IMG/VR virus record: IMGVR_UViG_3300028394_000067
Length of the DNA: 20,000 nucleotides
Strand: one strand, 5' to 3'
DNA from: an uncultured virus (IMG/VR IMGVR_UViG_3300028394_000067)
Taxonomy: Duplodnaviria > Heunggongvirae > Uroviricota > Caudoviricetes
Shown here piece after piece: positions 3,661-20,000 of the stretch. The notes below the pieces were generated by a model. The model saw nothing but the letters and a program-made list of their open reading frames with translations, ran no database searches and was not told where the DNA came from. Positions within the stretch are counted from its first letter, which is position 1. The number at the start of each line of letters is the position of its first letter. The position numbers were made by a program, and so were the translations under genes.

Positions 3661-3695
3661 TAACGAGTTAAAATGTTGTTCTCGGAGGTTATCTA

Positions 3696-4304
3696 ATGAG
3701 CTACTCTTTCTCCCCTAGTTATGGTTTTGATACTGCTTATAACAGGCCCTTACAGGGCAATATAAATGACTATACCGGCAAACGTTTTATCAATCCTCCT
3801 CTTGGTTATACAACTGACGTTTTCCGAGACGTAGAGCTCCCGGTTCCTGGCTCGGAATTTGGAGTTGCTAGACGTGATGAGTCTGGTTTATTTAATTTTG
3901 TAGATAAACTTGGAAACATAGCTCCAGGTGTAGCAAATGCTTACAGGGCTATGAGGGGTTTTCCTGCTAATCCTGCTTTTGAACCACAAGGTACTCGTTA
4001 TGCAGGGGATCGATTAGGTCGTGTAATAGCTGATCGTGAAAATCGCCGTCGAAATCAACCTATGCGAGAACTACCAGGAGCAAGAGACGTAGCACAGGCC
4101 GTGGCGGGGTCAGATTTTTCTCCCTTTAACACTGCTATTCTTCGTGAGGCAATTGCATCACCCACTGCTTTGCAACGGCTGTTTACTGGCGGGGTTGCCT
4201 CTACAATAGATCCAGTTCGTACCAGTGTGGCTTTAGCTGGGTCAGAGGACCTGTCTCAGACCGCTGCACTTCCGGCTGATTACTACTCTTCTCTTGTTTC
4301 CTAG
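3696..4304 (+). CDS. Hypothetical protein, putative internal virion protein
   Basis: 202-aa ORF with GGAGG RBS at 3684-3688; shares an FVDxLGxxxPGVxN motif with ORF 9407-10207. Confidence 0.65.
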   Translation: MSYSFSPSYGFDTAYNRPLQGNINDYTGKRFINPPLGYTTDVFRDVELPVPGSEFGVARRDESGLFNFVDKLGNIAPGVANAYRAMRGFPANPAFEPQGTRYAGDRLGRVIADRENRRRNQPMRELPGARDVAQAVAGSDFSPFNTAILREAIASPTALQRLFTGGVASTIDPVRTSVALAGSEDLSQTAALPADYYSSLVS

Positions 4305-4314
4305 GATCTAAATC

Positions 4315-4872
4315 ATGAGCTCTACAAGCACCAACAAACAACCTTTAATGGTTGATAGGCCTTTTCTTAGAGGCGCCAAAGTTAATAACGGAACTACTGT
4401 TGTAACTAATACAAGTAGTCCTGATTTTGGTGACTTAATTCAATTGGTTCGCGTTGGAGATCTTCCCTCAGAGGACGGAGCTCTTGTAGAGGATATTTTT
4501 GTCGTATCAAATGAAGGCTACCCAAATAGAGGTGGTGTTCGATCTGCAGCTTTTGGTGTTTATATCTATGCACCTAACCAAGCTGCTCCTTCTACCTCAG
4601 CTTCTCTTTTGATAAGTAAGTTTGAAGTTGGTCTATCCGGCGACACAGAAGGTTTGATTCAACGTGTAGAACTCCCCGCAACCGTTGCCCCCACACCTCA
4701 AACTGGGGACACTAACTTAGTCCGCCCGATTGAAATTGGTAAGTCTGAAGCTTTGTATTTAGAGAAAGGATATATTTTGTGTGTAGGTTACTTAGGTAAC
4801 GGACCCGCCGCTGTCTCCGGTGGCTTAAGTGCGTCAGGTCTCTCGATTTTTGCGCAAGGCGGTTTCTATTGA
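4315..4872 (+). CDS. Putative virion structural protein (beta-rich)
   Basis: 185-aa ORF with alternating beta-strand-like segments, ending AQGGFY, tightly packed within the structural cluster. Confidence 0.6.
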   Translation: MSSTSTNKQPLMVDRPFLRGAKVNNGTTVVTNTSSPDFGDLIQLVRVGDLPSEDGALVEDIFVVSNEGYPNRGGVRSAAFGVYIYAPNQAAPSTSASLLISKFEVGLSGDTEGLIQRVELPATVAPTPQTGDTNLVRPIEIGKSEALYLEKGYILCVGYLGNGPAAVSGGLSASGLSIFAQGGFY

Positions 4873-4875
4873 TCC

Positions 4876-6414: not shown

Positions 6415-6415
6415 C

Positions 6416-7039
6416 ATGACTTCAACACCAGTTACTTCTTTACTTAAAAGAACCGGTAACGCATCCGATAGACCGAGTGGCAACATCATTGTTAATGGTG
6501 AGCTTGCTTTGAGTTTTGGTGCGGCAGACCCTGGAGTTTATTTCGAAGATTCTGCTGGCAGCATACGAAAAATCGGTCCCACCGCTTACGGCACTGTAGC
6601 TCCTAACGCTGTACCCGTGGGTTTGGCGGGTAACTCCTTAGGGGAGTTGTGGACAGACTCCAACACGACTACGTATTATTTAAAAGTATGGAATGGCACA
6701 GCTTGGCAAAAAGTCGGTGCGGCTTTTGCTGATGTAGCTGGAAGTGCAAATGTCACTATTGCTTCTGGTGCTATCTTTGCAAACTCGGCTCTTGTGGCAT
6801 CAGGTTCGTTTGGATCGATCCTTGCCTCTGGGGCCTTAGGTGCAATTCTTGCTTCTGGTTCTCGTGGTGCACTGCTGGCTTCTGGAGTCGTTACCGCAAC
6901 CGGTGTATCTTGTTCCGATATTTATACAGGATCTTTGACTGGAACTGGGCCCTCTGGTTCCCTTCGCTACAAAATCGACAACACTGGAACGCCTAGCGGG
7001 TTGTACGTAGCCTTTGCTGGCGGGTGGGCTCTAGTTTAA
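6416..7039 (+). CDS. Tail fibre/fibre-adaptor protein
   Basis: N-terminal LKR..RP....GELALS...PGVYF..KIGP resembles the Mtd/hyaluronidase-type fibre N-terminal domain; GELWTD..LKVWNGTAW module; 9-aa (I/L)ASG repeats. Confidence 0.75.
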   Translation: MTSTPVTSLLKRTGNASDRPSGNIIVNGELALSFGAADPGVYFEDSAGSIRKIGPTAYGTVAPNAVPVGLAGNSLGELWTDSNTTTYYLKVWNGTAWQKVGAAFADVAGSANVTIASGAIFANSALVASGSFGSILASGALGAILASGSRGALLASGVVTATGVSCSDIYTGSLTGTGPSGSLRYKIDNTGTPSGLYVAFAGGWALV

Positions 7040-7572
7040 CTGTTTCTTAAAGTTGCTTTGAGCATCCACGCGCTCTTAAACATATTGTTAACAATTTCAG
7101 CTACAAAGTTTTCTACATCTGGAGCTTCAACTTCTTTAGCCATTTCAACGACGGCTTTACCTAACATTCCGCCTTGCTCTAGATTTTTTAAATAAGTTAC
7201 TAGACTGTCGTTTGCTTCGTACGTTTTGGTGTTAGGAAACTTTTTATAGGCGCTTAGTAGCCCGTTCTGGCACATAGGCATTAAGTAATCCATGCTTCTG
7301 ACCAGTTCAGAGACTGTATCAAAGTCCGTGGTGTGCTGTTCGTATTGTTTTTGTAAAAATTCGTGCAGAGCTAAAAATTGAGGAGACTCAATGTTTAGAT
7401 GAAGTAGATGCGCTTGCGTGTTTAGCTGGTATAGATAAGAAGCTAAAGCAACCATGTTGTAGATCAAATTGTCTACACAGTTATCTTTTTGTATAATGAC
7501 CTCCTGGGTGATCATTTCTTTCTTAGGTGCCTCGACGGCAGCCTGAAGTATATCCGTGATCGAGGAGGTCAT
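7036..7572 (-). CDS. dps: Dps family (ferritin-like) DNA protection protein
   Basis: HLNIESPQFLALHEFLQKQYE..DTVSELVR and the terminal WML match the Dps signature (HWN..F..LHE..Y....D..AER; WML). Ferroxidase H, H, D, E retained. ATG 7572 preferred; TTG 7587 possible. Confidence 0.88.
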   Translation of the reverse strand: MTSSITDILQAAVEAPKKEMITQEVIIQKDNCVDNLIYNMVALASYLYQLNTQAHLLHLNIESPQFLALHEFLQKQYEQHTTDFDTVSELVRSMDYLMPMCQNGLLSAYKKFPNTKTYEANDSLVTYLKNLEQGGMLGKAVVEMAKEVEAPDVENFVAEIVNNMFKSAWMLKATLRNS

Positions 7573-7583
7573 TAGGTTTAAGC

Positions 7584-7847
7584 TCAAAGAGCGCAGACGG
7601 CGCTTTCCTCTATATTAACCTCTTCGTTATCAACTTCTGCTCCGCTTTTCAAATATTCTTGAAGAGAATCTTGATGAATACGGTACAGAGACTTCGCGCC
7701 GTTTGGCTGAAGATTAACGAAGATGCCCTTAGGCCAACCACCGGGCTGATTAGATTCGGTAAGAGAGATACGTTTACGTACAAAACCAGCAGAGCAGTTG
7801 AGCAGCTCTGCGGTCTGAGCGATAGTCAGGAGCCGTGCAGTCTCCAT
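7584..7847 (-). CDS. Excisionase/MerR-like helix-turn-helix DNA-binding protein
   Basis: LLTIAQTAELLNCSAGFVRKRI ... YRIHQDSLQEYL matches the HTH_17/Xis pattern. Confidence 0.8.
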   Translation of the reverse strand: METARLLTIAQTAELLNCSAGFVRKRISLTESNQPGGWPKGIFVNLQPNGAKSLYRIHQDSLQEYLKSGAEVDNEEVNIEESAVCAL

Positions 7848-7881
7848 TGGAGTTCAGAAAGTAAATGTCGTGGACGTAACG

Positions 7882-7909
7882 ACGTTAGCAGGGATTAGCT
7901 GTAAGTCAA
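7882..7909 (-). promoter_or_regulatory. Sigma70-type promoter for the HTH-dps unit
   Basis: Minus strand TTGACT (7909-7904), 16 nt, TAACGT (7887-7882), with a TGn extension; 35 nt upstream of ATG 7847. Confidence 0.55.
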
Positions 7910-7980
7910 ACCATGATTATGCTTTTAATCTTAATTTCATAATCGTTACGGTAGACTAAATTGTAGTCGAAATACGACGC

Positions 7981-8229
7981 ATGACGATTCGTCTTGCTGG
8001 CGAAATCTTCAAAGGATATAATCAGCCTCGTCGAGATTCTGATGGAGGTAAAAAGTTTGCCGTGGCCGCAAAGGAAGGAGATACTGTGCGTTTAGTGCGT
8101 TTTGGTGACCCTAATATGACTATTAAAAAACACATTCCAGAACGAAGAGCTAACTTCAGAGCACGTCATAATTGTGATGCACCTGGGAGTAAATTAAAAG
8201 CTCGTTATTGGGCTTGCAAATCTTGGTAA
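7981..8229 (+). CDS. Small basic conserved phage protein
   Basis: KKFAV...VRFGDPNM.IKK..P.RR.NFRARHNC......ARYWACK.W is a motif I recognise from many phage hypothetical proteins; function unknown. Confidence 0.75.
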   Translation: MTIRLAGEIFKGYNQPRRDSDGGKKFAVAAKEGDTVRLVRFGDPNMTIKKHIPERRANFRARHNCDAPGSKLKARYWACKSW

Positions 8230-8266
8230 CGATTGGAGCTAAACTTAAATGAGCTTCGAGGATACA

Positions 8267-8500
8267 ATGAAAAACCACGGAAGTCAGTTGGTTGTTGGTC
8301 TAACAATCGAAGACGATTTTGTTCTGACCAGACTCAAGAACAGGGCGATCAGTTTGGAAGGAAAAGCGAGGGATCAGTATATGTGGAAAGTTATTTATAA
8401 TTTTGTATGCAGAGAACGTGCGTATAAATCTGTTTTAGAAGAGCTTGACGTGGCTATAGATACTAATATTGATATATTCCAAGAGGAGCCTAATGACTAA
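8267..8500 (+). CDS. nblA: NblA-like phycobilisome degradation protein
   Basis: LTIEDDFVL...YMWKVIYNFVCRERAYKSVL aligns without gaps over 46 aa to the NblA pattern as I recall it (LSLEQQFSI...FLVKLYEQMVVREATYQELL). GAGGA RBS at 8258-8262 favours ATG 8267. Confidence 0.7.
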   Translation: MKNHGSQLVVGLTIEDDFVLTRLKNRAISLEGKARDQYMWKVIYNFVCRERAYKSVLEELDVAIDTNIDIFQEEPND

Positions 8501-9368
8501 TAAAGACTTTATATCGCCGAATGCTCGTCGTTATCTAGATATTATTTCTTTTGCTGAGGGTACCCTCGGTCCTAAAGGTACACCTCGGTATGACATTACG
8601 TTTGGGTATACACCTATAACTAATAAATTGGTGGCCCACCCCAGACGTTTAGTTTCTAGTGGAGGCCATACAAGTGATGCTGCGGGCGCGTATCAATTTT
8701 TGTCAACGACGTGGAATAGGGTAGCTCCTATGGTGGGGGCCAAAGATTTTGGGCCGCGATCTCAAGACTTAGCGGCGTTGCAGTTAATTCGCATGCGTGG
8801 AGTTAATCCCGATCGCGATCCGATCTCACCTAACACTATTGCTCGCCTTGCCCCTGAGTGGGCATCCTTACCTACGTTGCAAGGAAAAAGTTATTGGGGT
8901 CAGCCAGTTAGATCTTTTAACGATATTCAACGTTTTGTACAGAACCGTGGCGGCGGTGCTTCAGTTTCTTATGATCCTTCAGTCCGGTACGCAGCTCCTG
9001 AAGGTACCGGTGAACCTGGTGGCACTCAAGGTCAACCAACAAATAGAGCCTATGATCCAGTTGTCGCAAGTGTAATTACTGGACTTTTAAAACAAGCAGG
9101 AGAAGGTAATAAAGAGTTAGAAAGGTCAACACTTTCTAGTCCGCCGCTTGTTGAGTTTAAAGGAGAGGAGGACGGTGATGCTTCCTCCGATAAAGTTTTA
9201 TCGTATCTTATGGAGGCTAAAGAAGATGAAGAGACTAAGGCTGCACTTCGAGCGCGAAACCAAGCAATTGCGTCTGCTGAAAGTGCTCAAGCGGAAACTC
9301 AAGACAAACTAAATAGACTTATGCTTCAAGCACAACAAGCTTTTACTACTCCTAGACCTGTAATTTAG
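8493..9368 (+). CDS. Lambda-R-type muramidase (GH104) with long C-terminal extension
   Basis: LDIISFAEGT (catalytic Glu), HP, SDAAGAYQFLSTTW, DFGPRSQD, EWASLP, YWGQP. GAGGAG RBS before ATG 8493. Confidence 0.9.
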   Translation: MTNKDFISPNARRYLDIISFAEGTLGPKGTPRYDITFGYTPITNKLVAHPRRLVSSGGHTSDAAGAYQFLSTTWNRVAPMVGAKDFGPRSQDLAALQLIRMRGVNPDRDPISPNTIARLAPEWASLPTLQGKSYWGQPVRSFNDIQRFVQNRGGGASVSYDPSVRYAAPEGTGEPGGTQGQPTNRAYDPVVASVITGLLKQAGEGNKELERSTLSSPPLVEFKGEEDGDASSDKVLSYLMEAKEDEETKAALRARNQAIASAESAQAETQDKLNRLMLQAQQAFTTPRPVI

Positions 9369-9406
9369 GGTTAAACTTAAATGACTGTCTCTCGCAGCAA
9401 AGTAAG

Positions 9407-10207
9407 ATGAGTTTTTCTGTAGGTGACTTAGGGTTTAATTACGGTGACTATAGCGTTAACCCAGGTGGGTTTACGTATCCAACTGGAGACTTTTCAGGTG
9501 GGTTTTCTATGGGTGACTTAGGAGTTAACTATGGAAATTACAGTGTCAATAATCCTTTTGCTAAGGCACAAAGCGGCGGTGGTTTTTTTAATCAAGCTGG
9601 TCAGTTTGTAGACAGTCTCGGTAGGCTTATACCAGGCGTAACTAATATTGCTAAGGCTTATCAAGATATTGCTGGTGTCGGAGCTCAACAATCTCCAGGT
9701 ATTTTTAACAAACAATTAACACAAGAATCTTTAGATAAAATAAACACGGAACGCAAAAATACTACGGAGCAGATAGCTGCAACTTTTCAAAGGATCGCTG
9801 GTTTAACCGGAAAAAATATACCCGGTGCTGTCAACGAATACATTGCAGCGTTTAACAAATACATGCCTGAAGCTGAGCAAAAAGGTTTGACGCAAATAGC
9901 AACACCGCCCGAGATCGCAACTGAATATGGTCGTTTAAAAAATCGTGTAGATGAAAGTAATACACAATACAGTACTTTATTAAACCCACGGTATCAAGCT
10001 GCTTATAAAGCCCCTGATGCAATTGCCTCTATTAATACTCAGGCTATTAAAGATGTTATGAGTTTTAGTCCCGCTAACCGTGAACTGTACAACTACAGCG
10101 ACCCTCAAAGTCAGAGAAACATTTATGGTCGACCTGAGGCTAATGCTAATCTTGCACAGTTTTATGCTGGGAACCAAGCCGTTAATGATCTAATGAGTTA
10201 CGGGTAA
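9407..10207 (+). CDS. Hypothetical protein, putative internal virion protein
   Basis: 266-aa Cys-free ORF with an N-terminal duplicated motif S(V/M)GDLG(F/V)NYG(D/N)YSVN and a helical remainder. Confidence 0.65.
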   Translation: MSFSVGDLGFNYGDYSVNPGGFTYPTGDFSGGFSMGDLGVNYGNYSVNNPFAKAQSGGGFFNQAGQFVDSLGRLIPGVTNIAKAYQDIAGVGAQQSPGIFNKQLTQESLDKINTERKNTTEQIAATFQRIAGLTGKNIPGAVNEYIAAFNKYMPEAEQKGLTQIATPPEIATEYGRLKNRVDESNTQYSTLLNPRYQAAYKAPDAIASINTQAIKDVMSFSPANRELYNYSDPQSQRNIYGRPEANANLAQFYAGNQAVNDLMSYG

Positions 10208-10479
10208 TGAGAGCTATAGGTAAAACAGGAGCAGAAAGACGTGCTGATAGTTTTGGTTCGCGAAGAGAATCGCACGTCGACAGAGAACCTCGTTTTTTAA
10301 GATTTGCTGGACAATTGTTTAACTTAAAGCCTAGGAGAGAACCAAACTACACAGGCAAACCTTCCGGTTTAAATTTTGGTAATCGAGATTCTTTTGGCCC
10401 TGATGATTCGTGGGCGACTAAGGAACCTATTACGTATAAACCCGTCCCAGACTACTATACATCTCACGAAACTTACTAA
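10207..10479 (+). CDS. Hypothetical protein
   Basis: 90-aa ORF coupled to the upstream stop (TAATG); overlaps the convergent minus-strand gene by 50 nt. Confidence 0.55.
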   Translation: MRAIGKTGAERRADSFGSRRESHVDREPRFLRFAGQLFNLKPRREPNYTGKPSGLNFGNRDSFGPDDSWATKEPITYKPVPDYYTSHETY

Positions 10480-11008
10480 CGCTTGATTCGTACTGTGTCA
10501 CAGGAGGTAAGTAGTAAATAAAACCAAACACCCTGCAGTTTTTTAAAGGTTTTAAAGTTTCGTCATCAATTAACAATTTTGGTTTATTTTTCAGGATACA
10601 CAGAGGAAAATCAAAATTAATTCGTTGCGTCGAGATAAAAGCAACCTCAGTAGAAGTTATAAACAAAATTCCCTGCTCAAATTCTTTATGAAGCCATTTT
10701 CTATATGCTTGTTCTAACCAGATACGTTGGTTTGATTTTTTAAATTGATTGTTTTTTGTAAATAACTTAATTGGCTTTGGCTGCTCGTGCTTTAGCGCAA
10801 CAGCTCTGGGAGGGTAAAGATAAATATTTTTAGCCTTCCAGGTCTGAACTAAACCGTTATTTTGCCAGTTAAAATATCGCTCAGCCTGTACAACTTGGTT
10901 TGCGTGTTCACTGGAGGCTGGATCTAAATCAATTGATCCACCATAAAACGCGGCTGTAAGAGCAATTAATTCCGGCGGCGAAACAAAATCTTTAGAGGAT
11001 AAGACCAC
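10430..11008 (-). CDS. Phage DNA N6-adenine methyltransferase-like protein with atypical catalytic motif
   Basis: IDLDPAS..AN..V.A..YF....NGL...W layout typical of phage Dam-like MTases, but YPPR occupies the NPPY position. Confidence 0.72.
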   Translation of the reverse strand: MVLSSKDFVSPPELIALTAAFYGGSIDLDPASSEHANQVVQAERYFNWQNNGLVQTWKAKNIYLYPPRAVALKHEQPKPIKLFTKNNQFKKSNQRIWLEQAYRKWLHKEFEQGILFITSTEVAFISTQRINFDFPLCILKNKPKLLIDDETLKPLKNCRVFGFIYYLPPVTQYESSVSKFREMYSSLGRVYT

Positions 11009-11411
11009 GAGAAAATTCGTCTATACGTTTATTCACCTGTTGCGGATCTATAAGGTGTAGAGATACTCCTTCAGGTTGGATCATTGCAACGAGTGCTAGG
11101 TTTTCGTCCTCGTGCTCTTCGATAAATTTATCTACCTTCTTCAGCATTCGGCAAACTTCTTTGTGCATCATTTCTTCAGCTAACGCTAGATCTCTATACA
11201 GATCTTTTGTCGTTAGGTACTTACTCTTTTGTGGATCTTCAGGGTTAAAAACTAAGATGCCCTTGCCTAAAGACTTCTTGTTATCAAAATAAATTTTTGT
11301 GATGTCAGCCAGAATGGTTCGCATCACCCCCGCAGCAATCATTGTTTCTGTTTCGTTTCCATGAAACAGTTGTTTAACCAACATTGCTGCGTTCTTTGAA
11401 AGATTAGTCAT
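10992..11411 (-). CDS. Hypothetical protein
   Basis: 139-aa ORF overlapping both neighbours in a compact operon. Confidence 0.7.
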   Translation of the reverse strand: MTNLSKNAAMLVKQLFHGNETETMIAAGVMRTILADITKIYFDNKKSLGKGILVFNPEDPQKSKYLTTKDLYRDLALAEEMMHKEVCRMLKKVDKFIEEHEDENLALVAMIQPEGVSLHLIDPQQVNKRIDEFSRGLIL

Positions 11412-11733
11412 TGTTTTGAAAGTTGCTCCAGGCTGATTGGATAATGGCGTGTGGATCGTACAGGAACTTTGAACTGTTTTGTTCGGCTGGGTCAGTTTTG
11501 CAGTAATGAGTACCCTGCACTAAACCAGATTTGCCTCCCGATGTTATGCCTTGATAAACTAGCTTATCAAGAGTAACTGTCGGTACGTTAAGACGTTGGC
11601 AAATAACTTTTTTTGAAACAAAAACTGTTGTTCTTTTGTCGCTACTTTTACTTAACGCAATTAGTTGCAGAGACGTATCAATACTAATTATTGCGTCTCG
11701 TATCTGTTTGATTTCTCGAAGTGCAGAGTCCAT
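11404..11733 (-). CDS. Hypothetical protein, possible excisionase-like winged HTH
   Basis: ATG 11733 (MDSALREIK) preferred to 11859. N-terminal coiled-coil-like helix, then FVSKKVICQRLNVPTVTLDKLV..G..GTHY, an HTH-like pattern. Confidence 0.55.
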   Translation of the reverse strand: MDSALREIKQIRDAIISIDTSLQLIALSKSSDKRTTVFVSKKVICQRLNVPTVTLDKLVYQGITSGGKSGLVQGTHYCKTDPAEQNSSKFLYDPHAIIQSAWSNFQNND

Positions 11734-11749
11734 GTGATAAAGAAAAATA

Positions 11750-11861
11750 GAGGGGCTCCTCAAACCACCTGGTACCAGGCAATTTAAGCGAATTGCTGCG
11801 GTGTGGAAAGGACGAAAACACGAGCCGCACCCCTCGTGCCAACGTGGCCCTTGTTTCACGC
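11750..11861 (-). ncRNA. Candidate structured cis-regulatory RNA/attenuator
   Basis: GC-rich intergenic region with five adjacent inverted repeats; G-U pairs extend two stems only in the minus orientation. No family recognised. Confidence 0.35.
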
Positions 11862-11869
11862 TGACTGCT

Positions 11870-12337
11870 TCAGTCTAGAAGTAATTCAAGTTGTGTCACA
11901 AAGTCCTTTGGTTCATCAGCTAAGAGCCTAATCAGTTTATGCAGTTTCTGATCCATGTCAAGTTTTTCTGGTGTGTTCTTTATTAACCAATAGTTATGCG
12001 CGTTTAGAAGATAATAGTGTGTTTGCTTTGCTCTTAAAGCTTGTGTCTTCCATTTTTCAAAATCAAAGCTGCTGTTGTGTCGTGAATTACCTCCGCGCAA
12101 CTCTAGTTCTCTGATTTCAATCTGTAAATCTATATCTTTAACTATGAACTCAAGTGAACTAATAATTGCTTTACATTCTTGGATTGTTTTTGGAGGTTCG
12201 TTATCCGTATAAATCCAAAACGGTAAACTTAGAACTCTTTGTTCTTCGGGCCAGAGAAAAGGTTTTGGCGGCTGTGGGCTATCCGCTGTAGTTGAGAAAT
12301 TGGAGGACTTGGCCGATAAATAAGTTGAAGTTGCCAT
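11870..12337 (-). CDS. Hypothetical helical protein
   Basis: 155-aa ORF with a coiled-coil-like core; part of the leftward operon. Confidence 0.7.
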   Translation of the reverse strand: MATSTYLSAKSSNFSTTADSPQPPKPFLWPEEQRVLSLPFWIYTDNEPPKTIQECKAIISSLEFIVKDIDLQIEIRELELRGGNSRHNSSFDFEKWKTQALRAKQTHYYLLNAHNYWLIKNTPEKLDMDQKLHKLIRLLADEPKDFVTQLELLLD

Positions 12338-12497
12338 TTAAACAGTACAAAGAATGTTGTTCAAAACTCGTTTTGATTACGAGCTCAAGCCTGTGAAGCT
12401 TGTTAAGCTGGGACCTAGTCGTGTTTGTAGACTGCCCTAGTGCTGTTGATAGCTCCGTAATATTCGCGGGTTGCAAATACTGTAGCTCCTCAATCAA
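12279..12497 (-). CDS. Winged helix-turn-helix protein (ArsR/MarR-like)
   Basis: LQPANITELSTALGQSTNTTRSQLNKLHRLELV...YCL. Likely TTG start at 12497 overlapping the upstream TGA (TTGA). Confidence 0.7.
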   Translation of the reverse strand: MIEELQYLQPANITELSTALGQSTNTTRSQLNKLHRLELVIKTSFEQHSLYCLNGNFNLFIGQVLQFLNYSG

Positions 12498-13186
12498 GCA
12501 ACTAAGCTTTTGGATTTCTCGGCGTCTGATCTTATTAACTGTATTACTCTCAGAGACAGCTCGAGCGAGAGCTGATCGTGCAATAGACGCTGCGTGGTTT
12601 TTGCCGAAATTCCCTGAACAGCTAATTTCTGGATGTAGAACCGAACTGGTTTCGTGATTTTTGCCGCTGGACTTTCTGCTATGCATAGATGATAAGGATT
12701 TATGCAGTTGGAATCAGAACAAGTCGAACGAACAAAGTTTGTAGCCTTTAACTTTTTCTTCCAGAAAATTTCATAAACAAATCGTTTTGTCCTTGTAGAA
12801 CGTTCGTTGTCCCGGTCGCGACAATAGCCTAGATCAGCTGGTAAGTACAGGTGCTCTTTTTTGTCTAAGACAAAGCGGTGCCGCTCGATCCAAGCCATAA
12901 GGTGTGCTGTTTTACCCCGTGCAAATTCAAACTCCTGACGGCAGACCTCGCAAGCGCGGATCAAATCATTTGGTAGTCGAACTTTTTTCATGTCCTTCTG
13001 AGGGACGACCAGAGGATCAGAACGACCGCAAAGGCAACTCCAGACAGCGACGTGGTCGTAGTGCTGGATTAACCAGTGGCCTTTGTGTTCTGTGTGGTCT
13101 GGCTTTACTGAGGGAACTGTTAGTGGGTGACCGTCTGAGAGTTCCAGTAAACCTAGAAGTAGTAGAGCTCGTTGGGAAAACGCCAT
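12494..13186 (-). CDS. HNH/His-Cys-type homing-endonuclease-like zinc protein, probably degenerate
   Basis: WSCLCG and CEVC pairs, KRFVYE, VRSTCSDSNCINPYHL (canonical: HR..Y..V.H.C.N..C.NP.HL), and a C-terminal HTH-like segment. Confidence 0.65.
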   Translation of the reverse strand: MAFSQRALLLLGLLELSDGHPLTVPSVKPDHTEHKGHWLIQHYDHVAVWSCLCGRSDPLVVPQKDMKKVRLPNDLIRACEVCRQEFEFARGKTAHLMAWIERHRFVLDKKEHLYLPADLGYCRDRDNERSTRTKRFVYEIFWKKKLKATNFVRSTCSDSNCINPYHLCIAESPAAKITKPVRFYIQKLAVQGISAKTTQRLLHDQLSLELSLRVIQLIRSDAEKSKSLVA

Positions 13187-13207
13187 AGGTTAGACGTGTT
13201 TGGGTAG

Positions 13208-13216
13208 AGTATAGCA
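13208..13216 (-). promoter_or_regulatory. Extended -10 promoter for the leftward operon
   Basis: Minus strand TGcTATACT, 21 nt upstream of ATG 13186. Confidence 0.6.
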
Positions 13217-13524
13217 CACAGAACGCTCTGAAGCTCATAGTCTATGGGGTAAGTGCAAATATTCTATTAAATCTAATCTTCTATTACTAAAAAGAGTCGA
13301 CAACTGATATGCGCGGCTTTAACTGTATTTAAAAAGTTCCGAAGCAACGAAAATTGGTACTTGTTATTTACCTGATAAGTATTAAGTTACTTTATAAGTC
13401 TCGAATTTAGTTAATTTAAAGTACCTTACTACGCGAAACTTGAGTGTCAGTGAGCTGCGTAGAAAAACTTTTTGGGTTTTAGTTTACCGAAGAACCAGTG
13501 TGGACTACCAAACCTTAACGGAGG

Positions 13525-13533
13525 TGTTACAAT
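13525..13533 (+). promoter_or_regulatory. Extended -10 promoter
   Basis: TGtTACAAT, 22 nt upstream of ATG 13556. Confidence 0.55.
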
Positions 13534-13555
13534 TTGAATAACACTACACTGATCT

Positions 13556-13726
13556 ATGTCCAAGATCATAGACAAGCCTCTGGACAATCCTTCTTGGACA
13601 GAGTTGAAGATCAGGTCTACGCTGCTCGGTGTGCCTGCCTGGCGCTTAGCTGAAGATCTGGCTTTCCACCAAAAAGACGGAACACTAGTTCTAAGTTCTT
13701 CTTCTCCAGTCAAGGTTAGAGTTTAA
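13556..13726 (+). CDS. Small hypothetical protein (56 aa; not in ORF track)
   Basis: MSKIIDKPLDNPSWTELKIRSTLLGVPAWRLAEDLAFHQKDGTLVLSSSSPVKVRV*, preceded by an extended -10. Confidence 0.55.
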   Translation: MSKIIDKPLDNPSWTELKIRSTLLGVPAWRLAEDLAFHQKDGTLVLSSSSPVKVRV

Positions 13727-13800
13727 ATTACTAAGATCTTTTGTTTTTCGGTCGAACTCAGTTAAACTGGGAGCTAAGGAGGGGTTACGTTTGTTTGTAA

Positions 13801-14691
13801 ATGACCGAATTAAACGTCCCTTCATGCCCTACTCACGGTTCGTTACCCCGTTCACTCCATTCGGAGAATTTTGAGGGTATCGTTACTGTTGTTTCAAACC
13901 TCATCGAGACGGTAAGCGGAGTGGGAACTGTAAGCTATTCTCGTTGCCCTTACGGGTATCCTTCTAATTTTGAAGGCGTTGTCCGCGTATTAGAAGATTT
14001 AAATACAACTGTAAGTGGTATACAAGGAGGTGGAGGCGGCGGCTCTGCTAGTGGAATTGTTGGTGGTTCAGGTATTTATATTGTTCAAAGTGGTAGTTTT
14101 CAAGTCATTAACGCCACTGTGTTATCAGCTTCAGGTATTGCTTACACAGCTGGCTCTGGGCTTTTTCTTAGTAACGCCGGGACAACCTTTAATCTTTTTG
14201 CAACCGGACAAGGAAATGTATCTGTATTGTATAGCGGAAGTCTTGCGGTAATTAGTGGTGCTGGAAGTTCCAGTGCTGGCGGCTCTGCCGCTATTATTTC
14301 TGGCGCACCAGGAGCCGGGTACGGAGCTGGGCAACTTTGGTTTGATACGAACGAAGGACGGTTGTTTGTTTATGCTTCAGGTAACGGAGTTTCCGCTCCC
14401 GCTTGGTATCAGACCAATGCTGAAGCGTTAGTGAATAAAAGTTCCGCACCTCCTTCAGGCGCAGGACTAAACGCTCCTTTAAGAGACGGACTGCTGTGGT
14501 TTAATACGTTAATGGGTAATTTGTTTGTATACGATGCTACTAGTAGTGGTTGGTACGAAACAGGACCGGTTAGATCAGCAGCATATGGTGCTGCAGCACC
14601 TTCGGTTAACAGTACTCCAGGCGCTGGTTGGTTTAACACTACGAGTCAAAGTCTGCTTATTTGGGATGGTTCCAACTGGATTTCAGTGTAA
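13801..14691 (+). CDS. Tail fibre/fibre-adaptor protein
   Basis: Duplicated NFEG(I/V)V.V.....TVSG N-terminal motif, Gly/Ser linker, three GxxWF(D/N)T....L(F/L)(V/I)(Y/W) modules typical of phage fibres. Confidence 0.75.
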   Translation: MTELNVPSCPTHGSLPRSLHSENFEGIVTVVSNLIETVSGVGTVSYSRCPYGYPSNFEGVVRVLEDLNTTVSGIQGGGGGGSASGIVGGSGIYIVQSGSFQVINATVLSASGIAYTAGSGLFLSNAGTTFNLFATGQGNVSVLYSGSLAVISGAGSSSAGGSAAIISGAPGAGYGAGQLWFDTNEGRLFVYASGNGVSAPAWYQTNAEALVNKSSAPPSGAGLNAPLRDGLLWFNTLMGNLFVYDATSSGWYETGPVRSAAYGAAAPSVNSTPGAGWFNTTSQSLLIWDGSNWISV

Positions 14692-14712
14692 AATATAATT
14701 ATTTTTTGAACT

Positions 14713-14835
14713 ATGGCCAACCCGAAAGATAAAGTCAATAAAATTGACAGTAAGCCAAAACGAACTCGTCAGGGTCAAGGTCTACATAGTCGCCCGTCTC
14801 ACGGTAGAAAAAAACTAAGGGGACAAGGAAAATAA
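14713..14835 (+). CDS. Small basic protein (40 aa; not in ORF track)
   Basis: MANPKDKVNKIDSKPKRTRQGQGLHSRPSHGRKKLRGQGK*; the PK.TRQG.G...RGQGK pattern resembles small cyanophage proteins. TAAAAT box at 14689-14694. Confidence 0.7.
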   Translation: MANPKDKVNKIDSKPKRTRQGQGLHSRPSHGRKKLRGQGK

Positions 14836-14870
14836 GGATTAAAGTTATTTAGTGATCTTTTAAATTTAAA

Positions 14871-15254
14871 ATGGCTATTACTTCCTTTACGACCACTGAC
14901 GCTGTTTCCCAAGGTAATGCTGTTTACCTTACTTCTAGTGGATTTTTAGGTAAAGCCATAGCAACAAACTTTACCCAATCGGCTGTTGTCGGATTAGCGT
15001 TGAATTCCGCTAATTCATCTAACCTTGTTAGTGTTGCTGGAGATTCTGTTTTTATCTCTTCGCTTACATTGACTCCAGGAACTCTACAGTATTTATCTAT
15101 CTCTTCATCAGGATCTTTGGTAGATTATCCTACCTGGCAAACTCAGTTCAATTCCCTAGTAGCTTCGGGGGCTTTTTTAACCAGCGTGGGCCGCGCAGTT
15201 AGTTCTTCAGGAATAAGTTTAGAAATTGAAAAACCTATCTATGTTACAAAGTAG
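14871..15254 (+). CDS. Putative virion decoration/fibre-base protein
   Basis: DAVSQGNAVYL..A.A.....VVGLA...LTPG..YLS..G....VG.A.S....LEIEKPI; apparent paralogue of 16849-17352. Confidence 0.65.
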   Translation: MAITSFTTTDAVSQGNAVYLTSSGFLGKAIATNFTQSAVVGLALNSANSSNLVSVAGDSVFISSLTLTPGTLQYLSISSSGSLVDYPTWQTQFNSLVASGAFLTSVGRAVSSSGISLEIEKPIYVTK

Positions 15255-16137
15255 GCATTTCATAATCCTGCGTAACATTTACGTAATGTTTCCATATTAC
15301 TTCTGAACTGTTTCCCGCCCACTTAGCTGCTTGTGCCACAGGAATTTTTTCTTCTAACCAACGGCTGATTGCTGTATGCCGCAAATCATAAGGTCTGTAT
15401 CTGTGAGTTATTAACCCAGCTTCTAGTAACTCTTTTGCGCGATCGTAGAAAAAACTCATGAATGCGTATCTGTTGTAAGGAAATACGTAGTCATCTATTT
15501 TAGGTTGTTCTTTTAAAATTGCTTGCGTTCGGGTGTTTAGAGGCACAAGTCGTTTTTTATTGGTTTTAGTTGAGTTTTTTAAACCATGTGTAAGTGTGTA
15601 ATTGCAGTGCACTAAAATTTTATCTTCTTTTATGTCACTCCACTGTATTGCTCTTACTTCACCTGTTCGCATAGCTGTTTGTAGCATGAATTCTGCATAA
15701 GCCGCCCAATTTTGTTTTTTTTGTCTTTCTTTAAACGTGTTTAATAATATCGAAGTTTCGTTGCGGGGAATCACAATAATTTCTTCATCCTGCTGCGGTG
15801 GTTTTGGCATTCTGTATTTAGCTATTGGGTTTTTTGTCAGATAACCTATCTCATCGCTGGAAGCCCAAGCATATAATGCTTTTATGTACATACAAACACG
15901 TCTAGCTGACTTAACAGGTTGTTGTCCTAGGGTCCATCGCATTAGTTCTCTGCCTTCTTCTAAATCAGTTACCGGACATCGATTAAGCCATTTAAAAGTC
16001 TGTTTATAGTCACTTACTAAACTTGTTGGGCACAGGATAACGCTTCGTTCTGCGTGGAATTTTTGCCAAGCTTCTTGAATTGTAGGAGTTTGCACGGACT
16101 GGAGGGACAGAGAGTCCTCAAAGTATACTGGGGTCAT
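15244..16137 (-). CDS. Tyrosine recombinase (integrase/invertase family)
   Basis: MRTGE (Arg), KNSTKT (Lys), YDLRHT (xxxR), AGNS and WKHY (Tyr nucleophile), plus an N-terminal core-binding region ending NP. The Y..RH/GNS variant is typical of cyanobacterial members. Start may be GTG 16095. Confidence 0.92.
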   Translation of the reverse strand: MTPVYFEDSLSLQSVQTPTIQEAWQKFHAERSVILCPTSLVSDYKQTFKWLNRCPVTDLEEGRELMRWTLGQQPVKSARRVCMYIKALYAWASSDEIGYLTKNPIAKYRMPKPPQQDEEIIVIPRNETSILLNTFKERQKKQNWAAYAEFMLQTAMRTGEVRAIQWSDIKEDKILVHCNYTLTHGLKNSTKTNKKRLVPLNTRTQAILKEQPKIDDYVFPYNRYAFMSFFYDRAKELLEAGLITHRYRPYDLRHTAISRWLEEKIPVAQAAKWAGNSSEVIWKHYVNVTQDYEMPTL

Positions 16138-16231
16138 CGACGGTATGATATATACTTAAATTATTTTTTTTCATCGCTTCTTCTGGACTGAAGTTGGCAT
16201 ATAATTATGTTGTGCAAGTTGTAAATTTACA

Positions 16232-16819
16232 GTGTTTGTTCTAAACGGAAAACCACTTGCTTTGGATGTTCCATTTGAAGCTAACGACACTCTTTACCCT
16301 GCAAATTGGTTGCGCTTAGCTTCGCCAACAGAACGAGAAGCTATTGGTATTACTGAGGTTCCAGATCCTCCATTTTATGATCAGAGATTTTATTGGGGAT
16401 ATACGGCGAGCGGTACTCTAATTCCTAAAGATCATGGAGTTTTAGTTTCTGGGTGGTCTGATCAGACAAGTCAGACAGCATATACTCTTTTGTTGCCAAC
16501 GGATTGGCAGATAGTACGTCAGATGGACGACGGCACTCGTGCAGACCCTATGATTGTCGCTTGGCGTCAAAACATACGTCAAGCTACTTCAGAAAAGATA
16601 AGTTGTCTTCAAAGCACGGCTACCACAGAAGAGTTAGCAAATTATGTGACTGGTTCTGGATACCCCGTGTGGCCACAACTAAACCCTCCAACTCCACCAA
16701 CTCCTGATCCCTCTGGCGTTGTGTTTAGTAATTATGGTACTTCTTCTTCTCTGCTGACAGATAATTCACTCGTTACTTCGGCTCCTTTGTTTACATCTAG
16801 TTCAACATTAACTTTTTAA
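16232..16819 (+). CDS. Tail fibre assembly chaperone-like protein
   Basis: YPANWLRL...AIGI....DQRFYWG N-terminus and LLLPTDW......WRQNIR...WP motif typical of phage tail assembly chaperones; Pro/Ser/Thr-rich tail. Confidence 0.7.
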   Translation: MFVLNGKPLALDVPFEANDTLYPANWLRLASPTEREAIGITEVPDPPFYDQRFYWGYTASGTLIPKDHGVLVSGWSDQTSQTAYTLLLPTDWQIVRQMDDGTRADPMIVAWRQNIRQATSEKISCLQSTATTEELANYVTGSGYPVWPQLNPPTPPTPDPSGVVFSNYGTSSSLLTDNSLVTSAPLFTSSSTLTF

Positions 16820-16848
16820 CTAACTTGTTTACCTAGAGGATTTTTGCC

Positions 16849-17352
16849 ATGACTACTCGCACCATATTTAACAGGAAATACGAGTCTTATACTCCGGCAG
16901 GCACCGAAGTTTATTTAGTAAATGGTGCTGGTGTCACTACAACTGCTATAACAACACAGTTATTGACAGCAGGACAAACCCTAGTACAGGGAGATGTTGT
17001 TTACGTTAGTGGTGTATATGCTTTATTAGCTAGTGCAGCGAGCGGTGTGGACGCCACAAGGTATAATCCGATAGGCATCACTGCTACATCTGCTGTAGCA
17101 GCAAGCGGCGTAGAGGTTATCTTGGATGATGTTGCGACAATGTCTGCTGTAAATTTAATAGGGGAGACTCAAATGATCCCCGGCCAGTACTATTACTTAT
17201 CTAAATACGCTGGTAAAATAACTCGTTTTTCGACCGCTTCTGGTTTGGTGACAAGCGCCAGTGGGTATGCAGCGTTGGTAAACTTAGGGCAAGCTTTAAG
17301 TCCTTCTGAGTTAGAAGTAGAAATAGAATCACCAGTGATCCTTAACAACTAG
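16849..17352 (+). CDS. Putative virion decoration/fibre-base protein
   Basis: TAGQTLVQGDVVYV..PIGI...PGQYYYLS..G....LGQALS..LEVEIESPV; AGAGGA RBS; paralogue of 14871-15254. Confidence 0.7.
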   Translation: MTTRTIFNRKYESYTPAGTEVYLVNGAGVTTTAITTQLLTAGQTLVQGDVVYVSGVYALLASAASGVDATRYNPIGITATSAVAASGVEVILDDVATMSAVNLIGETQMIPGQYYYLSKYAGKITRFSTASGLVTSASGYAALVNLGQALSPSELEVEIESPVILNN

Positions 17353-17381
17353 GGTTATACTTAAATAACGGAGGTTTTCTG

Positions 17382-18110
17382 ATGGCTACGCGCAGACCGA
17401 TTGTTTTAGTTAGTGGAGTTTCCTCAGAGTTACCTCCTGGTGATTTAGTTCCGGGTGTTGATTCTACGGCTCAAGCTTCGGGTAACGCTGCCTTAGTTTT
17501 AGCAGCGATTGCACTTGCATCAGGTAATGCTGCACTAACTAACTCTGCTACTGCACTTGCATCAGGTAATGCTGGTCTTGTAGTTGCATCACAAGCATTA
17601 ACTTCAGGTAATCTAGGTATTACAAATGCAGCGACTGCACTTGCATCAGGTAATGCTGCACTAACTAACTCTGCTACTGCACTTGCATCAGGTAATGCTG
17701 CCTTAACTGGACTCTCAAGTAAATATGACAAAGTCGGTGGTGCAATTTCAGGCCCCGTGGTTGTTCAATCTCAATCTATTGGTCCTTCTACTTATGTAAT
17801 TAGTTCTGGCGTTTGTAGATTAAATTTTGGTGCCGGTAATAATTTTGAAGTTGTTCTAAACGCTGCAACTTCTACTTTTGCTACTCCTGTAAATGCTAGT
17901 GGGGGTCAAACAGGAGCGATCACACTACGTCAAGACAACACAGGCACACGTTTAGTTGCTTACAGCGGTGCTTGGAGCTTTGCTAGTAACACAGCGCCAA
18001 CTCTGACTACAACGGCTAGCGGCGTGGATTTACTTGCGTATTATGTAGTTAATCCTGCACGAATTCTTGCTGTTGCTACGCTAGCTTACGGGTCCGGTAC
18101 CGTTTCTTAG
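17382..18110 (+). CDS. Fibre protein with 14-aa ALASGNA repeats and C-terminal adaptor domain
   Basis: GGAGG RBS; six xxSGN units at 14-aa spacing; C-terminal NNF.V.L...P.N...GQ.G.I..QD.TG.R......W.F....PTLTT....D domain, which often precedes lectin-type receptor-binding genes. Confidence 0.78.
   Translation: MATRRPIVLVSGVSSELPPGDLVPGVDSTAQASGNAALVLAAIALASGNAALTNSATALASGNAGLVVASQALTSGNLGITNAATALASGNAALTNSATALASGNAALTGLSSKYDKVGGAISGPVVVQSQSIGPSTYVISSGVCRLNFGAGNNFEVVLNAATSTFATPVNASGGQTGAITLRQDNTGTRLVAYSGAWSFASNTAPTLTTTASGVDLLAYYVVNPARILAVATLAYGSGTVS
17510..17700 (+). repeat. 65-bp exact direct repeat (17510-17574 and 17636-17700) within a 42-bp-period array
   Basis: TGCACTTGCATCAGGTAATGCTGCACTAACTAACTCTGCTACTGCACTTGCATCAGGTAATGCTG occurs twice, offset 126 nt. 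Confidence 0.9.
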
Positions 18111-18122
18111 GATTTATCAGTA

Positions 18123-18242
18123 ATGAGCGGTCTTTTAAGCAATTCTTTATTTCTCTCTACGGCAGCCGCCGCTGGTGGCTTACAAATATCCAGATCATTG
18201 AGATTCAATAGTAGTGACAGTGGTTACGAGGGTACATTATGA
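18123..18242 (+). CDS. 39-aa truncated duplicate of the receptor-binding protein N-terminus (candidate constant leader of a switching locus)
   Basis: MSGLLSNSLFLSTAAAAGGLQISRSLRFNSSDSGYEGTL*; 20/22 aa identical to the next gene's N-terminus; its TGA overlaps the next ATG (ATGA). Confidence 0.7.
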   Translation: MSGLLSNSLFLSTAAAAGGLQISRSLRFNSSDSGYEGTL

Positions 18243-20000
18243 GCATCCCAGGAAGCGCCAGTCCACTATTGCTGGCATCAACTGCCGCCGCTGCTGGTGG
18301 TTTGCAAATAAGTAGATCAATACGTTTTAATTCAGCAGACTCGGCTACTTTGAGTAGAACCCCGGCAGTAGCGGGAAATAGGCAGACGTGGACGTGGAGC
18401 GGGTGGGTGAAGCGGGTTTTCTTTGGGCAGAGTTTTGAATACTTATTTGACGCAGGAACAGCAGATAACTTTGGCTTTACCAACAATTCTGCTTATGTAT
18501 ATTTTGGATCTGGTGGCCTTGGATTTAAAACGGCATCCGCTGTTTTTCGTGATCCAAGCGCTTGGATGCATTACCTTATTCATCTTGATTCCACTAATGC
18601 TACTGCTGAGGACAGATGCCAGATTTGGATAAACGGAGTCCGACTTACGTCTTGGTCATCTAACCCAACCATACCTCTAAACTTTCAATCAAACATAAAT
18701 AGCACAGTAGCGCATACCTTCGCTAATGCGCCAGGATATAGCTTTATGAATACCTACCTCACCAACATCCACTTCATTGACGGCCAAGCACTTACCCCCA
18801 GCAGTTTCACCGAAACCGATGCCACTACTGGGCAACTGATACCAAAAACATACACCGGAAGTTACGGGACGAATGGCTTCAACCTTTTGTTCGCTGATAA
18901 CTCCAGCAATACTGCCAGCACATTAGGGAAGGACACTAGTGGCAACAGTAATAACTGGACGCCGAATAATTTATCCGTTACTGCTGGTGTAGGCAACGAT
19001 TCCCTCGTAGACTCCCCCACTAATGGGTCGCAGTCGGACACTGGCGTGGGCGGCGAGGTGAGGGGCAATTACGCGACGTTGAATCCGTTGGCAAATGGGG
19101 CCGGGACGCTTACGAATGGCAATTTAGATTATCTTGCCGCCACCTCGAATGCTTGGGGGACACGATATTCAACAATAGGCGTAAGTTCTGGCAAGTGGTA
19201 TGCAGAGTTTACTGGCATTGCTCAGACAAGTGGGATGGGCATGATGGCCGGGGTTTCCCGATCAATACAGTCAGGGCACGTCGGCTCTACCTCAGACGGA
19301 TACGGCTACAGATACGCGGGCGATAAGTATAACAGCAACTCAGGATCCGCTTATGGCGCTAGTTACACAGACAACGATGTTATCGGGGTTGCACTAGACC
19401 TAGACAACGGCACTCTTGTTTTCTACAAAAACGGTGCATCACAAGGCACCGCGTATTCGTCATTACCTTCCGGAACGTACTTCTTTGGCTTGTCTGGATA
19501 TCACACATCAACTCAAGCTGTCGCCAACTTCGGCCAACGCGCATTTGCCTACACCGCACCATCAGGCTTCAAGGCACTTTGCACACAGAACCTGCCAGCC
19601 CCATTAGTCACGAAGTCTAATACGGTGTTTGATGTTGCGTTGTGGACGGGAGACGGAGGAAGCACAAAGACTATTACAGGTCTTGGTTTTAATCCTGATT
19701 TTATCTGGACAAAGCAAAGAAACCAAACGTATTATCACCAAATTTATGACGTTGTACGTGGATTGGGTGTTGCAAAAGCAATAGCTAGTAATGCAGATAC
19801 TGTTGAGGGTTACGGGGATTCAGCGCAATATGGATATATTAGCTCTACAACTGCTGACGGATTTATAGGTACTGCTGGTACTGGTACGCCATTGTATGTT
19901 AATCAAACAAGCACTACCTACGTCGGCTGGTGCTGGGACGCAGGCACCTCAACCGTATCCAACACAGCAGGCAGCATCACTTCTCAGGTGCGGGCGAATG
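18239..20000 (+). CDS. LamG/concanavalin-A-like + SPRY domain receptor-binding/tail protein (partial, runs off window; not in ORF track)
   Basis: Uninterrupted frame of at least 587 aa: SRSIRFNSADS..WTWSGWVKR..FRDPSAWMH..IWINGV (LamG-like); SSGKWYAE..DVIGVALDLDNGTLVFYKNG..NFGQ (SPRY); WTGDG..GLGFNPDFIWTK.R repeat domain. Confidence 0.88.
   Translation, partial: MSIPGSASPLLLASTAAAAGGLQISRSIRFNSADSATLSRTPAVAGNRQTWTWSGWVKRVFFGQSFEYLFDAGTADNFGFTNNSAYVYFGSGGLGFKTASAVFRDPSAWMHYLIHLDSTNATAEDRCQIWINGVRLTSWSSNPTIPLNFQSNINSTVAHTFANAPGYSFMNTYLTNIHFIDGQALTPSSFTETDATTGQLIPKTYTGSYGTNGFNLLFADNSSNTASTLGKDTSGNSNNWTPNNLSVTAGVGNDSLVDSPTNGSQSDTGVGGEVRGNYATLNPLANGAGTLTNGNLDYLAATSNAWGTRYSTIGVSSGKWYAEFTGIAQTSGMGMMAGVSRSIQSGHVGSTSDGYGYRYAGDKYNSNSGSAYGASYTDNDVIGVALDLDNGTLVFYKNGASQGTAYSSLPSGTYFFGLSGYHTSTQAVANFGQRAFAYTAPSGFKALCTQNLPAPLVTKSNTVFDVALWTGDGGSTKTITGLGFNPDFIWTKQRNQTYYHQIYDVVRGLGVAKAIASNADTVEGYGDSAQYGYISSTTADGFIGTAGTGTPLYVNQTSTTYVGWCWDAGTSTVSNTAGSITSQVRAN

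Follow-up and report, generated by a model that had tools for sequence, protein, structure and literature searches.

The window that we analysed, a stretch of 20,000 nucleotides (nt) from an uncultured virus (IMG/VR record IMGVR_UViG_3300028394_000067; Duplodnaviria, Heunggongvirae, Uroviricota, Caudoviricetes), carries a 39-residue open reading frame (ORF), here called the stub, directly in front of a complete gene for a receptor-binding protein (RBP), here called RBP2. This stub is probably the orphaned leader of an earlier RBP gene, left behind when recombination replaced an RBP cassette, and the replacing cassette would belong to a family of homing-endonuclease cassettes whose nuclease gene is absent here. 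The observations behind this reading are the anatomy of the junction, two states of one backbone in the population, a junction shared with other phages, and a mobile unit of 722 nt. An original prediction, made from the DNA letters, had taken the same arrangement for a host-range switch thrown reversibly by a tyrosine recombinase encoded about 2 kb away, a mechanism that our results do not bear out.

The ORF at 18123-18242 on the plus strand translates as MSGLLSNSLFLSTAAAAGGLQISRSLRFNSSDSGYEGTL before its stop codon and runs parallel to the start of RBP2 (MSIPGSASPLLLASTAAAAGGLQISRSIRFNSADSATLSRTP...) up to RFNSSDSGY, with 70% identity to RBP2 residues 3-35 in tblastn, as the original prediction had it when it described a copy of the RBP N-terminus through RFNSSDS. 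The DNA word that it singled out within these codons does lie at 18201-18222, inside a 27-mer at 18201-18227, and its 13-mer core (AGTAGTGACAGTG) occupies 18210-18222. Judged from the sequence, the leader repeat in the stub is a matter of homology and not of chance, and exact copies of the 27-mer are found in other contigs, both viral and metagenomic. The TGA of the stub (18240-18242) overlaps the ATG of RBP2 at 18239, and a Shine-Dalgarno-like GAGGG run lies 6 nt 5' of that ATG; RBP2 is probably expressed from resident signals, either via this run or via ATGA coupling to the stub.

The predicted overlap with a complete start and the predicted SPRY domain of the downstream gene (4.7e-14) are both there, but the LamG domain that had been assigned to it is not: no LamG model of Pfam matched RBP2 at E<=0.01, and DUF7483 (3e-31) was found instead. 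The relatives of RBP2 are annotated as concanavalin-A-like or laminin G proteins, and its PHROG matches are virion structural and tail fibre proteins. By tblastn it matched 66 phage records, with Methylophilales phage MEP301 at the top (43% identity over 96% of the query), and these relatives, from phages of Methylophilales, Pelagibacter, Roseobacter and cyanobacteria, are fibre or SPRY proteins. With SPRY plus DUF7483 and homology to virion and fibre proteins of cultured phages, RBP2 belongs to a SPRY/concanavalin-like tail-fibre family of aquatic phages. A megablast of 15244-20000 against cultured phages gave no match. The window ends inside RBP2, and the genome 3' of it lies outside the sequence studied.

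The same backbone exists in another state. Its nearest record, G001 (42,454 nt), is 100% identical to window positions 1-18227, and after ...GGTTAC it reads TGTGCT, where the record ends, at the place where the window reads GAGGGT. Contigs of the source-like run X1 hold both continuations: the first spans 17671-18227 and ends there (depth 45.9), the second consists of the word, the linker and RBP2 and covers 18204-18808 (depth 36.1), and the third (depth 22.5) carries the word, 27 other letters starting with TGTGCT and then window positions 18377-18415, after which it diverges and rejoins the window at 18754; all are short and break at the word, and the pairing of leaders with continuations is not readable from these contigs or their depths. 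Read in frame, the third contig is an ordinary intact RBP (...SSDSGYCARTPGTASGNR...; ...RFNSSDSGYCARTPGTASGNR...), and similar 'YC.R' forms are found in intact genes of relatives. In runs X4, X5 and X8, the backbone is present only up to 18139-18222. An exact IMG/VR search for the TGTGCT continuation found no other instance.

Thus one freshwater sample holds two states of one otherwise identical backbone. Since G001 and X1 read through the word as an intact RBP, the older state would be the normal RBP gene and the window the derived one, where the word is followed by a second, complete RBP, and the identity over 18,227 nt with a sister record holding the intact older RBP suggests that the replacement was recent. 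An alternative state had been predicted, and it exists insofar as the leader reads in frame into a full RBP (at the G001 end and in the X1 contig of depth 22.5), but the start-less, "headless" RBP cassette to which the leader was expected to fuse did not appear when G001 (42 kb), G002 (89% complete) and G003 were searched in six frames with the RBP; G002 contains the stub and one full gene only, and G001 the leader only.

Stubs of this kind recur in other phages, and they break at the same place. We found three distinct junction types, all breaking 0-9 nt after the 13-mer: type W in the window, type H in L004/L119 and L082, and type D in L053, L060, L087, L092 and L096. Together with the divergence of G001 right after the word, this bears out a crossover at or near the 13-mer, as originally proposed. 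Within types H and D, the DNA is constant from the word rightwards and the upstream leader varies, type D standing on three different leaders, and in all three types the stop of the stub frame overlaps the start of an RBP. In type D, ...GACAGTG is followed by 14 codons (DLWQNLCNTQEAAK and a stop), the stop overlapping the ATG of a 509-residue fibre-like gene with a Laminin_G_3 domain. In type H, the frame continues after ...GGTTACGAG into a protein with HNH_3 and AP2 domains, the stop of which overlaps the start codon of a complete, SADS-leadered RBP. The RBPs behind the type W and type H stubs are both SADS-leadered and lack the word. The old leader is frameshifted in L004, with no in-frame start, and barely recognisable in L082, the word being intact in both. 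The type D tail (...NLCNTQEAAK and a stop) resembles the C-terminus of the endonuclease (...ALTNAQLQEVAA and a stop) in the same frame, and the alignment pairs both regions, which is suggestive, not strong, evidence that this tail is a remnant of a deleted endonuclease gene.

Two genomes with stubs carry the word twice. G004 (78,772 nt; L096, L248), rated 100% complete, has two units of adaptor, leader and type D junction, the first inside the contig at 38905 and the second, behind a different leader (L060 type), 108 nt short of the contig end; the second copy is a 98.5%-identical repeat of the 133-nt type D unit, and G004 may hold two fibre modules or be a mis-joined contig. The two word copies of G005 belong to two tandem fibre modules.

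The junction ORFs of L004 and L082 match HNH_3 at 1e-14 and 7e-15, and AP2 at 2e-4, under the Pfam cut-off, with 9.5e-8 against AP2 domains of the PDB. L119 and L082, which come from one sample and from different phages, have only 722 nt in common, at 98.2% identity. This tract starts 2 nt before the word, takes in the endonuclease gene and extends about 150 nt into the leader that follows; outside it nothing is alignable upstream and only patches of 79-93% identity are found downstream, as is looked for in a co-conversion tract. Because the sharing is limited to these 722 nt, the mobile unit is the word, the endonuclease gene and a spare leader, and not the whole RBP. A four-way alignment shows the window as type H minus the endonuclease block: both have TAC, GAGG, the 11-nt linker and the ATG, and the block between TAC and GAGG comprises, by manual count, 531 nt in frame, so that the endonuclease is present or absent at one site. 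Once the endonuclease gene is removed, the L004/L082 linker has the same length and the same first four bases as that of the window.

Other nuclease genes lie in the same region. Endonuclease homologues are also found between the RBP and the ORF that usually follows it, g195, in L081, L017 and L018. Within L004:10570-14057, the DUF7483 of the RBP is split over two overlapping ORFs (10570-13014, profile 1-182; 12974-13333, profile 216-330), and a gene with DUF4379 and T5orf172 at 13263-14057, just after the RBP, is another likely homing nuclease.

We picture the replacement as follows. The left crossover would fall in a 27-nt island (TTCAAYAGTAGTGACAGTG plus about 8 nt) inside the conserved leader and would join the resident leader to an incoming cassette, which would bring its own ribosome-binding site, start codon, island-less leader and a different RBP body. 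The donor would already have carried the composite of linker, second leader and second RBP; such composites would descend from homing cassettes, and repair would copy the cassette into cut alleles with an intact island. The nuclease gene would either have been lost from the cassette of the window or never have entered it. A tentative proposal, which we hold to be less likely than not, is that the exchange is driven by the endonuclease through cutting of alleles with an intact island; that the island is the homing site of the HNH-AP2 endonuclease, and that its cassette carries a replacement 5' end of the RBP gene, is more doubtful again. Stubs would persist where the new leader lacks the word, because two direct copies of the word would be expected to recombine and remove the stub. 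A spare leader keeps the fibre gene whole, which would explain how a coding sequence can harbour an endonuclease gene with neither intron nor intein.

The word is conserved as DNA well beyond these few loci. The sequence TTYAAYAGTAGTGACAGTG occurs exactly in at least 122 IMG/VR stretches, and among the word matches listed we fetched 80 loci (L043-L122), a set ascertained by the word itself. In 73 of the 80 the frame reads through the word, 36 being closed at 657-1039 codons and 37 reaching the contig end; the remaining 7 loci have stubs. Two further viral contigs contain the exact 27-mer; a 21-mer from it appeared in metagenomes in two short contigs only, both with intact RBP genes, and in L005, L014 and L015 the word likewise lies inside intact RBP genes (...RSLRFNSSDSGYLSRTPAS...). 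Because the first set was ascertained by the word, we took a second, codon-unbiased sample through degenerate peptide patterns, which gave 80 loci, 63 with the motif, in 58 distinct contexts (27 SSDS leaders, 25 SADS leaders and 6 others). AGT AGT GAC AGT was used exactly in 24 of the 27 SSDS leaders, and the 25 SADS leaders use about 20 codon combinations. Third-codon-position conservation in the SSDS leaders is 0.74-0.96 over +3 to +29 versus 0.41-0.78 in the flanks, and no comparable island was seen in the SADS leaders of this sample. The expectation that relatives would conserve the word at the DNA level is therefore well founded. The contig ends within 150 nt downstream of the word in 12 of the 80 word-bearing loci, meaning that in this phage group assemblies break directly behind the leader of the RBP, which fits a region that varies within populations. 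A reading of the island as an RNA structure was dropped, no second invariant pairing stretch being present within -18 to +84 or among the shared 12-mers.

Several observations weigh against a descent of the window junction from homing cassettes. No endonuclease gene is present at the window junction (18228-18238), which makes the window at most a derivative or empty form of such a cassette and not a member of the family. The linker homology between types W and H is thin, consisting of the length, the first four bases and 10 matching positions of 15. Type H is known from two contigs of one sample, the word followed by GAG occurs in IMG/VR only in those two, and an exact IMG/VR search for the type W junction found no contig other than the window. 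Homing endonuclease target sites are expected to diversify under attack and not to stay homogeneous, so homing explains the uniformity of the island only loosely. Other conserved 12-mers exist in the RBP genes at about +466 (40 of 74 distinct loci) and about +1260, and they are places where the run contigs leave or rejoin the window; since islands inside RBP genes coincide with run-contig joints, plain homologous recombination could suffice without any nuclease. Finally, the SSDS word is present in 9 of 9 typed records with the tyrosine recombinase or a remnant of it, and SADS leaders in 3 of 4 typed records without it; both samples are small and phylogenetically non-independent, and we take the association as an open hint that leans towards the recombinase.

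The main rival, which we consider improbable, is homologous recombination without a nuclease. RBP genes would then be mosaics joined at short islands, one illegitimate join would have made the combination of word, linker and complete RBP, which spread using the island as its left homology, and the endonuclease of L004 and L082 would be a later, unrelated insertion into an intergenic spot. The several islands with their run-contig joints agree with this, as do the contig ends just past the word, expected for a population-variable region, and the endonuclease homologues and recombinase in the slot between RBP and g195 of relatives imply that the region collects selfish genes. It accounts poorly, however, for three junction types all breaking 0-9 nt after the same 13-mer, for an endonuclease gene placed exactly at the island end with an in-frame difference from the window form, and for a type D tail that resembles the endonuclease C-terminus in the same frame. 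The left homology, at 27-32 nt, is also short for unassisted recombination. We keep to cassette replacement by descendants of homing cassettes as the preferred reading.

It is very unlikely that the window is an assembly chimera, in which a G001-like backbone was joined across the 27-32-nt word to the word, linker and RBP2 of another phage. The word is indeed common to several phages of the same sample, with several upstream and downstream continuations, G001, assembled independently, has the other continuation on the same backbone, and the depths differ (45.9 upstream, 36.1 on the window path and 22.5 on the other path). But this repeat is shorter than an ordinary short read, and assemblers normally resolve such repeats; the word, linker and RBP2 are themselves one run contig (18204-18808), so that the stub of type W junction exists in some phage regardless; and stubs stand on good leaders in other records.

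Lowest among the readings that we graded, and hardly credible, is the exchange of RBP cassettes at the word by the tyrosine recombinase, whether shufflon-like or between co-infecting genomes, which would give a switchable host range. The original prediction correctly described a lone, intact, antisense recombinase gene, with matches to PF00589 and PHROG 1; its matches to Xer models are weak and far under the curated cut-offs. The enzyme is intact, and its motifs are conserved in six homologues of 60-74% identity; the gene is always divergent to the g195 homologue and lies within a few kb of the RBP in every record that bears it. These facts favour a role in the exchange, as do the conservation of the word as DNA, the two states of one backbone and the company that SSDS leaders keep with the enzyme. 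A single-protein search found the recombinase in no bacterial genome and a profile search in three contigs of metagenome-assembled genomes (MAGs) from unrelated phyla, which leaves a role in lysogeny unproven; no tRNA gene was found in the window. The three homologues (L165, L166 and L167; 54-60% identity) come from MAGs of Hyphomonadaceae, Methylacidiphilales and Ignavibacteria and are probably phage contigs swept into MAG bins.

Against the recombinase stands the fact that no partner site was found. The 13-mer has no second copy in the window at up to 2 mismatches on both strands (the 1 match is the site itself, 0.66 being expected by chance), and when up to 1 mismatch is allowed, single copies lie in G001, G002, G003, G006, G009 and G010 and two copies in each of G004 and G005, where they are direct repeats in separate fibre modules. 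No inverted 13-mer pair was found in the window, G001-G006, G009 or G010; the longest inverted repeat in the window is 32 nt with 72% complementarity, and none surrounds the RBP. By eye, the word has no dyad symmetry. The further inverted or partner copies of the word with start-less cassettes that the switch calls for were thus not found in the window, in G001 or in the 89%-complete relative with the same stub, nor was a headless copy found in G001, G002 or G003.

Nor does the recombinase track the stub or the word. Among stub-bearing records it is present in G004, is interrupted by an internal TAA in G006 and is absent from G005 (97% complete), and the incomplete G007 and G008 show none. Stub-less records that carry it are G009, G010, L025 and L099, with a remnant in G013, and it is absent from five stub-less genomes that are 98-100% complete, three of them SADS-leadered. 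The supposed co-occurrence with the word was found in only 3 of the 33 word-bearing loci with a visible g195 slot (L096, L099 and a remnant in L047), the recombinase being absent from the other 30. Moreover, where relatives do carry a gene at the junction, it encodes an HNH homing endonuclease. We read the recombinase as a sporadic accessory insert in the fibre region, which may serve lysogeny or be a selfish element and is probably unrelated to the mechanism that made the stub, and the reversible switch is not supported. An integron-like insertion, with hybrid sites flanking the cassette, was considered too and stays a candidate, the half-site search being that for the 13-mer at up to 1 mismatch only.

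The recombinase gene has a history of its own. In L016-L018 (e.g. L018:6666-6803) and G013:45397-45537, only about the last 46 recombinase codons are left, inside an 83-residue open frame; the protein is 94-96% identical to the window gene but the surrounding DNA tract only about 74%, which suggests that the C-terminal fragment is still under selection as protein. The end of G005 (L251) matches G004 (L096:5521-6499) until the recombinase gene's 3' end, where the two part, so the recombinase gene would be a clean presence-or-absence block behind the fibre gene.

The features of the window are collected in Table 1. In relatives, g195 usually lies just downstream of the RBP, and 33 of the 80 word-bearing loci have a homologue of it close to the RBP. 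Among 19 viral loci with relatives of the adaptor, 13 show g167, the adaptor and then a single RBP leader, none has a stub, and the remaining 6 have long, repeat-rich adaptors and no RBP match. The 42-nt adaptor repeat, present as six tandem units in the window, forms far longer runs in L028, L029 and L031-L034. Elsewhere in the window, the minus-strand ORFs at 12494-13186, 7584-7847 and 7036-7587 include an endonuclease-like protein (PHROG 1872, 4e-5), a small HTH_17-like protein (3.3e-5, under the Pfam cut-off) of the fold family of excisionases, and a ferritin/Dps-like protein (1.9e-10).

Table 1 Features of the window around the stub junction
Feature	Position	Strand	Remarks
Tyrosine recombinase, 297 residues, uninterrupted	15244..16137	-	PF00589 7.4e-16; PHROG 1 integrase 7.7e-41
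g195, 195 residues, function unassigned	16232..16819	+	no Pfam or NCBIfam match
g167, 167 residues, conserved, precedes fibre adaptor	16849..17352	+	syntenic with adaptor in relatives
Fibre or adaptor protein, 242 residues	17382..18110	+	six 42-nt repeats at 17460-17742; RBP gene normally directly 3'
Stub ORF, 39 residues	18123..18242	+	probable orphaned 5' leader of resident RBP gene; that gene intact in sister record G001
32-nt stretch, putative recombination joint	18199..18230	+	identical in a relative otherwise about 70% identical; contains the 27-mer and the 13-mer core
11-nt linker GAGGGTACATT	18228..18238	+	bears Shine-Dalgarno-like run for RBP2
RBP2, complete start, runs off window	18239..20000	+	SADS-type leader without the word; SPRY and DUF7483

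The arrangement has points in common with several known systems. In the R64 shufflon (Rci) and in the Gin, Cin and Hin systems, a constant N-terminus is joined to alternative adhesin or fibre C-termini by a crossover inside the coding sequence, and both depend on sites in inverted repeat and on silent segments carried by the same genome. Here, too, a constant leader is joined to alternative bodies inside the coding sequence. In contrast to the Rci shufflon, the genomes searched yielded no inverted sites and no silent start-less C-terminal segments; a PF00589 enzyme is present and is at most a candidate for acting on such sites. Gin, Cin and Hin are serine recombinases, whereas the enzyme of the window is of the tyrosine type, and no inverted repeats surround the RBP. 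Modular tail-fibre mosaicism combines a conserved N-terminal anchor with exchangeable distal domains and usually ends in one hybrid gene. The present case resembles it in that one backbone carries different RBPs, the leader is conserved, the bodies vary and contigs break after the leader, but differs in the orphan leader ORF before a complete gene and in the recurrence of the same junctions on different backbones.

Further parallels are offered by phage endonuclease genes. Free-standing endonuclease genes of T4-like phages, such as the seg and mob genes of T4, move together with their flanks, a process termed 'intronless homing' (PMC2988022). The present case is similar in having an HNH gene that neighbours or interrupts an important gene and that some related genomes carry at a given site and others lack, and a short tract of high identity amid diverged flanks, and dissimilar in that the cassette carries a duplicate 5' end, that the downstream gene is complete and the upstream piece redundant, that the window has no nuclease gene, and that cleavage is predicted. 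Endonuclease genes also split essential genes, as mobE does in nrdA of Aeromonas phage Aeh1 and mobA in the topoisomerase gene 39/60 of T4 (PMC2988022). These cases share with ours an endonuclease gene inside an essential coding sequence without intron or intein, but both of their halves are needed and reassemble as subunits, whereas here the second part is full-length with its own leader and the first looks dispensable, being frameshifted in L004 and degraded in L082. HEG islands and nuclease genes mark the boundaries of phage genetic exchange and cluster near essential genes (Barth, Dunham and Seed 2023; PMC10448857). Our nuclease gene likewise lies at the edge of an exchanged tract, which is 722 nt here versus more than 10 kb in that study, and one edge here is a fixed 27-nt word in a coding leader. 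In the BASEL collection, homing endonucleases with gene conversion are reported, as is their presence or absence beside tail-fibre loci (PMC8594841). A narrow literature search turned up no account of a cassette with a second 5' end for the gene it invades.

For annotation, short leader ORFs before fibre genes are not to be annotated as separate genes or read as switches, and contigs of this phage group should be expected to break just after the word. The host range of a phage is set by its receptor-binding genes, and the natural exchange of these genes has mostly been inferred from mosaic sequences. The case described here offers a fixed 27-nt joint, two states of one backbone, recurrent orphan leaders, and a nuclease and a spare leader that move as a unit. 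If the homing model is true, a selfish nuclease gene can enter an essential host-range gene within its coding sequence, with neither intron nor intein, leaving orphan leader ORFs behind and dragging new RBP parts between unrelated phages, and the island DNA, found in more than 120 viral contigs, would owe its uniformity to conversion, time and again, by cassettes of this kind. Together, these features make up a testable route by which selfish nucleases may drive the turnover of receptor-binding proteins in uncultured aquatic phages.

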